Below, in pieces: positions 61,326-61,387 of a stretch of DNA of 64,000 bases; positions within the stretch are counted from its first letter, which is position 1; each line of letters opens with the position of its first letter. Under the pieces are notes generated by a model. The model did no database searches. It was not told where the DNA came from and was given only the letters and a program-made list of their open reading frames with translations. A program made the position numbers and the translations under genes. Source of the DNA: Escherichia coli O127:H6 str. E2348/69 (GTDB lineage: Bacteria > Pseudomonadota > Gammaproteobacteria > Enterobacterales > Enterobacteriaceae); assembly GCF_000026545.1 (NCBI RefSeq), contig NC_011601.1; one strand, given 5' to 3'.

Positions 61326-61387
61326 ACCATCTGCGGTGATAAATTATCTCTGGCGGTGTTGGCATAAATACCACTGGCGGTGATACT
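61326..61387. promoter_or_regulatory. Left operator OL3-OL2-OL1 and PL promoter (lambda-type)
   Basis: accatctgcggtgata, tatctctggcggtgttg, taccactggcggtgata; -10 gatact; -35 reads ttggca rather than the ttgaca I remember for lambda. Confidence 0.85.

Follow-up and report, generated by a model that had tools for sequence, protein, structure and literature searches.

The early-left promoter (PL) of the lambda-immunity prophage integrated at argW in Escherichia coli O127:H6 E2348/69 has a −35 hexamer that reads TTGGCA rather than TTGACA. Our reading of this difference, to which we give a probability of about three in four, is that an ancestral A at position 61362 has become G in this strain alone, in a promoter that stands ahead of a nutL-N module of the mEp234/HK106/HK97 type, and that the change weakens the −35 element, spares the operators, and blunts prophage induction. 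Positions are those of the window, meaning the whole 64,000-nt stretch of contig NC_011601.1 that was analysed.

The PL region and its relatives

What places the site at PL? The hexamer TTGGCA was read directly from the + strand at 61359-61364, at a distance of 17 bp from GATACT (61382-61387), and a consensus scan found this pair to be the sole sigma-70-like site in 61100-61700, with a match to the consensus at 9 of 12 positions. The features of OL and PL were placed with the help of the curated record of phage mEp234 (EF120460.1), in which the operators, the −35 and −10 hexamers, the start, and the nut sites are annotated; these annotations were transferred to the window, and every sequence was then checked directly. 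The features are as follows.

59618-60331, + strand: cI repressor gene (full-length match to 3bdn_A, E 2e-155)
61140-61168, + strand: intrinsic terminator resembling timm, where the cI-operon transcript ends, upstream of OL (terminator scan; homologous to the Timm annotation of mEp234)
61325-61341, + strand: operator OL3, AACCATCTGCGGTGATA, same as lambda and mEp234 OL3
61345-61361, + strand: operator OL2, TATCTCTGGCGGTGTTG, same as lambda and mEp234 OL2
61359-61364, + strand: PL −35 hexamer, TTGGCA (versus TTGACA), to which the minus_35_signal of EF120460.1 maps
61362, + strand: derived A>G transition, −32 from the inferred start, fourth base of the −35 hexamer
61369-61385, + strand: operator OL1, TACCACTGGCGGTGATA, same as lambda and mEp234 OL1
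61382-61387, + strand: PL −10 hexamer, GATACT (mEp234 annotation, consensus scan, and direct reading)
61394, + strand: inferred PL transcription start, +1 (mEp234 annotation and lambda homology)
61404-61412, + strand: putative nutL boxA, CGCACTACT, same as the feature annotated in mEp234
61456-61470, + strand: putative nutL boxB hairpin of the HK97/mEp234 type, GCGCTGACAAAGCGC, same as the feature annotated in mEp234
61636-62019, + strand: N antiterminator gene, 127 aa (ORF; Pfam N_peptide, E 2e-15; RefSeq annotation)

By its sequence, the site is PL, the early-left promoter, in a lambdoid prophage with lambda immunity. First, there are three 17-bp CI/Cro operators with the sequence and spacing of lambda. 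Second, a sigma-70 promoter is interleaved with OL1 and OL2; its spacer and −10 hexamer are identical, and its −35 hexamer agrees at five of six bases. Third, cognate lambda-type CI and Cro, the latter present as an ORF, lie beside a lambda OR. Fourth, the promoter stands ahead of a putative nutL and an N antiterminator. PL points rightward in the window, with cI, OR, and cro to its left, and N is the first gene of its operon and is full length.

The −35 hexamer overlaps OL2, the final three bases of the operator being the TTG of the hexamer. Because the 7-bp spacer between OL2 and OL1 begins at position 61362, this base lies directly outside the 17-bp OL2, and the A>G change should leave CI and Cro binding essentially as it was. 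The rest of the switch follows lambda closely. OR1-3, PR, and PRM are those of lambda base for base, and CI aligns with 3bdn_A (Lambda Repressor, 236 aa) from end to end, the displayed alignment showing three substitutions. No damage is apparent in the operators, PR/OR, cI, or N, and PL is the only switch element that seems altered.

The OL/PL region of lambda (J02459, 35559-35683) shares with the window OL1, OL2, OL3, their spacing, the −10 hexamer, and the start region, in addition to the near-identical cI and the identical OR/PR. The two differ at three positions between OL3 and about +15, namely 61362 (A>G), 61388 (G>A, at −6), and 61390 (G>A, at −4), and they part company from about +15 to +20 onward because the nutL/N module of the prophage is of the HK97/mEp234 type; in addition, rexAB of lambda is replaced in the prophage. 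A preliminary description of this DNA had noted TTGGCA in place of TTGACA and a divergence starting shortly after the transcription start. Alignment to J02459 confirms the first and puts the second about 15-20 nt downstream of the start. The description was mistaken in holding that OL/PL otherwise follows lambda, since it missed the differences at −6 and −4 in the discriminator.

The proper comparator is the early-left region of the mEp234/HK106/HK97 type, not that of lambda. The wild phages mEp234 and HK106 (EF120460 and EF120461), which have lambda immunity, are the same as the window over 131 nt, from upstream of OL3 to nutL boxA, including all three operators, the −10 hexamer, the discriminator CTAAACAC, and the start. 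The sole difference in this interval is position 61362, where −32 is A (TTGACA) in the two phages and G in E2348/69. The likeness extends to nutL boxB and the type of N. The phages differ from the prophage between cI and timm, where mEp234 has hicAB and one ORF and the prophage of E2348/69 has a two-gene cassette instead. In the discriminator between −10 and +1, the window, mEp234, HK97, and most natural lambda-immunity sequences read AAACAC, which is the majority allele both in IMG/VR (41 of 53 loci) and among the metagenome loci (9 of 13). The GAGCAC of laboratory lambda is a minority allele (3/53 and 2/13, respectively), and GAGCGC occurs in a further two IMG/VR loci and one metagenome locus.

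Distribution and origin of the G allele

The A at −32 is the rule wherever this region was compared. Alignment gave TTGACA in all 11 phage references, i.e., lambda (J02459) and ten further lambda-immunity phages (mEp234, HK97, PhiR5_2, CL707, HK542, HK244, HK544, SfI, ev099, and mEp332). A pattern scan of IMG/VR that permitted any hexamer recovered 53 loci, 51 with TTGACA and two with TTGGCA, and both of the latter match the window at 100% identity along 5.6 and 10 kb. All 13 metagenome contigs read TTGACA, as do both of two further contigs with a lambda-type OL. When a 76-nt stretch was compared with 5,426 complete E. coli genomes, 568 records matched, only three of them at 100%. In the same collection, the G version of a 31-mer centred on the hexamer occurs exactly in only those three records, and the A version, with TTGACA in context, occurs exactly in 217. 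The three records are E2348/69 (Taunton isolate), “E2348/69 variety 2” (Sanger/Imperial), and an engineered derivative of variety 2, and the accessions with the G allele are CP059840.2, LT827011.1, and LT903847.1; the window is 100% identical to NZ_CP059840.2.

Was the G, as the preliminary description thought possible, introduced during sequencing or assembly? Had only one assembly carried this single-base difference, such an error could have explained it. The same G is shared, however, by three separately deposited assemblies and two IMG/VR copies, which makes a sequencing error very unlikely, and the site is not a homopolymer. We consider the chance of an error negligible.

The nearest relatives from outside E2348/69 used for comparison are the prophages of MFDS1019527 and NCCP 13717. 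Over 59565-61440 the window is identical to both except at 61168 and 61362, a pattern that fits a recent point mutation at 61362. The other difference, 61168, is an A at the end of the timm T-run; lambda, mEp234, MFDS1019527, and NCCP 13717 all have G there. Outside this interval, differences from three relatives are uninformative owing to mosaicism, and at 59553, in OR1, the window has the lambda allele and the relatives have a variant. On these alignments, the G allele is derived and is known so far only from strain E2348/69, where “private” means private within the collections searched and among sequences that retain the flanking operator context. Since all E. coli carriers descend from one isolate of 1969, a mutation acquired in culture and one acquired in the wild are not separable. 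The exact N protein was considered as a means of dating the mutation and rejected, as it is too widespread (14,222 blocks of the assembly collection) and is not lineage-specific. The gene for this 127-aa protein lies beside immunity regions of very different kinds, Stx-phage-like contexts with a Ser/Thr kinase gene among them, and thereby illustrates a mosaic boundary just downstream of PL.

Other changes in the PL family were also seen. Five records were sampled that depart from the canonical 31-mer by one or two mismatches, and all differ elsewhere than by A>G: four are altered by substitution within OL1, OL2, or the spacer, and the fifth has a 1-nt deletion in TTG. The deletion, inside the −35 TTG of FELIX_MS75, may be an assembly error. 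Natural variants of the −10 hexamer include GATACC in OkiPb01713 and GATAAT, a change towards consensus, in a contig of GCA_965183525.1. Core-promoter polymorphism thus arises occasionally in the PL family and is not unique to E2348/69.

Predicted effect on PL strength

There are two published sources from which the effect of the substitution can be estimated. The first is an energy matrix for sigma-70 RNA polymerase that was inferred from mutant libraries of lambda PR (Lagator et al. 2022, PMC8791639, Fig. 1 source data). In this matrix, A>G at the fourth −35 position costs 3.95 kT, the biggest penalty at that position and one comparable to changes at the first T of the hexamer. Applied to the PL sequence in a simplified form of the authors' model, the matrix gives a P_on of 0.86 for TTGACA and 0.11 for TTGGCA. 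The spacer convention of that study is ambiguous (8 or 9 bp), and both readings were computed; the alternative gives 0.62 and 0.036, so that the modelled drop is 8-17-fold across the two. The second source is an isogenic pair of class 1 integron promoters, in which PcIn42 (TTGGCA-17-TAAACT) was derived from PcS (TTGACA-17-TAAACT) by site-directed mutagenesis and the two differ by ~25-fold (Jove et al. 2010, PMC2791841). The pair has the same substitution, the same −35 hexamer, and the same 17-bp spacer as PL; it differs in its −10 hexamer, flanks, and genetic context and has no repressor control. Moreover, PcIn42 lies in coding sequence, so the substitution there also alters an amino acid, unlike at PL.

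Taken together, these sources indicate that A>G at −32 probably weakens PL about tenfold, roughly one order of magnitude, a figure that draws on lambda PR mutants by way of a thermodynamic model and on an integron promoter with a different −10 hexamer. The preliminary description had expected a weaker −35 to lower early-left transcription. The promoter-down part of that expectation agrees with both published datasets, which are independent of each other, and the part that concerns PL itself carries over from other promoters. The expected mechanism would be weaker recognition of the −35 hexamer by region 4 of sigma-70.

Classical promoter-down mutations of lambda PL, such as sex1, are point mutations in the −35/HincII region that lower leftward transcription, and sex1 may fall in the same hexamer. 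A literature search of limited reach did not find the sequence change of sex1 or of other PL −35 mutants. Like the sex1 class, the G allele lies in the region of the HincII site, and it converts GTTGAC to GTTGGC, with loss of the site.

Could the loss at PL be smaller than these estimates? PL is a very strong promoter with A/T-rich DNA upstream, so that part of the loss might be masked by saturation or made good by upstream contacts. Indeed, PL might be strong enough, or sufficiently buffered from upstream, for TTGGCA to be near-neutral and induction little changed. With the G in place, the consensus scan for sigma-70 promoters still picks out this site alone in the region (9/12), the model places the wild-type promoter near saturation (P_on 0.86), and the natural variants GATACC and GATAAT indicate that the PL core is not absolutely fixed. 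However, no other substitution occurs in the −35 hexamer among the independent natural sequences examined, all of which read TTGACA apart from the one genome with the 1-nt deletion in TTG, and this invariance argues for purifying selection. In addition, both quantitative sources rank A>G among the most damaging −35 changes. Near-neutrality is therefore improbable in our judgement, and a substantially weakened PL is the reading carried forward below.

It is also conceivable that the change matters for what it creates, either a sigma-54 −24 box or a new transcription-factor site. TTGGCA is indeed reported as a −24 consensus sequence of sigma-54 in a study of P. putida (PMC11997794). At PL, however, the hexamer is without a GC −12 element at the needed spacing. 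The pattern TGGCAC-N5-TTGCW had no match at 61360 with up to two mismatches, and its count across the window equals the shuffle expectation. A sigma-54 (−24/−12) promoter, defined by a GG −24, a GC −12, and a fixed spacing between them, was accordingly rejected as a classification of the site, and we give the creation of any such new element almost no weight.

Probable consequences for the prophage

What would a weakened PL mean for this prophage? CI, predicted to act on OL1-3, would keep PL repressed, and the lower output of the promoter would appear on derepression. At that point there would be less N, cIII, Kil, and recombination functions, and less of the TorI-type excisionase. N antiterminates the PR operon too, acting at nutR, and for this reason the lytic cascade as a whole may be slowed or blunted, with less progression to Q and the late genes. 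Less N-dependent early-left expression upon induction is the likely outcome, given the estimates for promoter strength above. A literature search on prophage induction in E2348/69 returned nothing relevant.

The prophage is ~44 kb long. At one end, intS (~26700-27850) lies beside a tRNA-Arg gene, and a torI-type excisionase gene lies at the other, beyond position 64000. The integrase gene intS is at the tail-fibre end, where it cannot be read from the PL operon, and the TorI-type excisionase is at the PL-distal end and would depend on that operon. We take this arrangement of intS and torI to be that of KplE1/CPS-53. In the RefSeq annotation the gene set is largely complete, with replication, nin, Q, lysis, head, and contractile tail genes. 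A tail-fibre gene (~29081-29650) is annotated in the E2348/69 assembly as a partial pseudogene without a C-terminus, and the adjoining helix-turn-helix gene (~28066-28263), possibly an invertase, is also annotated as partial. The two partial genes suggest that the prophage may not make infectious particles.

The slot occupied by rexA/rexB in lambda, between cI and timm (60339-61134), holds two overlapping genes that encode proteins of 145 aa (phrog_5893) and 123 aa (phrog_6136). The 123-aa protein weakly matches an XhlA/CorA-like coiled coil and is hydrophobic at its C-terminus, and neither protein has a Pfam or PADLOC match above threshold. Identical 145-aa and 123-aa proteins are encoded by the prophages of MFDS1019527 and NCCP 13717. 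The pair is a candidate exclusion cassette expressed in the lysogen.

Why did the G allele become established? One explanation is adaptive attenuation, or domestication: a PL-down allele would have been selected in the host lineage because it reduces Kil and lytic killing on SOS while lambda immunity and the cassette next to cI are kept. There is some evidence in support of this explanation. The nearest relatives differ from the window at just two positions in 1.9 kb, and this change, one of the two, is at one of the 12 core promoter positions. The operators, cI, and PR are spared, and the RefSeq-partial tail-fibre and neighbouring genes suggest that the phage may no longer be selected as a phage. 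However, selection cannot be demonstrated from one SNP in one strain, and the observation was chosen after the fact. Among the E. coli genomes, IMG/VR, and metagenome contigs, none of the other lineages showed a convergent −35 change, and the remaining lytic machinery is largely intact. We therefore regard attenuation by selection as unlikely. The fuller claim, that A>G was selected because it weakens PL alone, leaves the operators, cI, PR, and the cassette as they were, and so makes of a prophage that is lethal when induced one that a human pathogen keeps as an immunity/exclusion module, is less likely again. For the probably weakened, strain-private PL, the data do not distinguish selection from drift in a partly decayed, perhaps phage-defective prophage.

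What are the broader implications? The control region is well known and the point mutation an ordinary one, with an effect that is predictable from published data, and the importance of the allele is limited by the fact that PL is among the best-understood promoters in biology. Within the family, it is a probably strongly damaging change in one strain, every other hexamer read being TTGACA except in the one record with a 1-nt deletion, and it adds one small data point on the build-up of regulatory lesions in prophages. If the fuller claim of selection were true, the allele would be a natural case of prophage attenuation through a single core-promoter base. For practical purposes, loss of the HincII site makes the allele usable as a marker of strain E2348/69. 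For the strain itself, the allele predicts poor induction of the argW lambda-immunity prophage and so bears on the induction, SOS, and lysis phenotypes of E2348/69 (EPEC).
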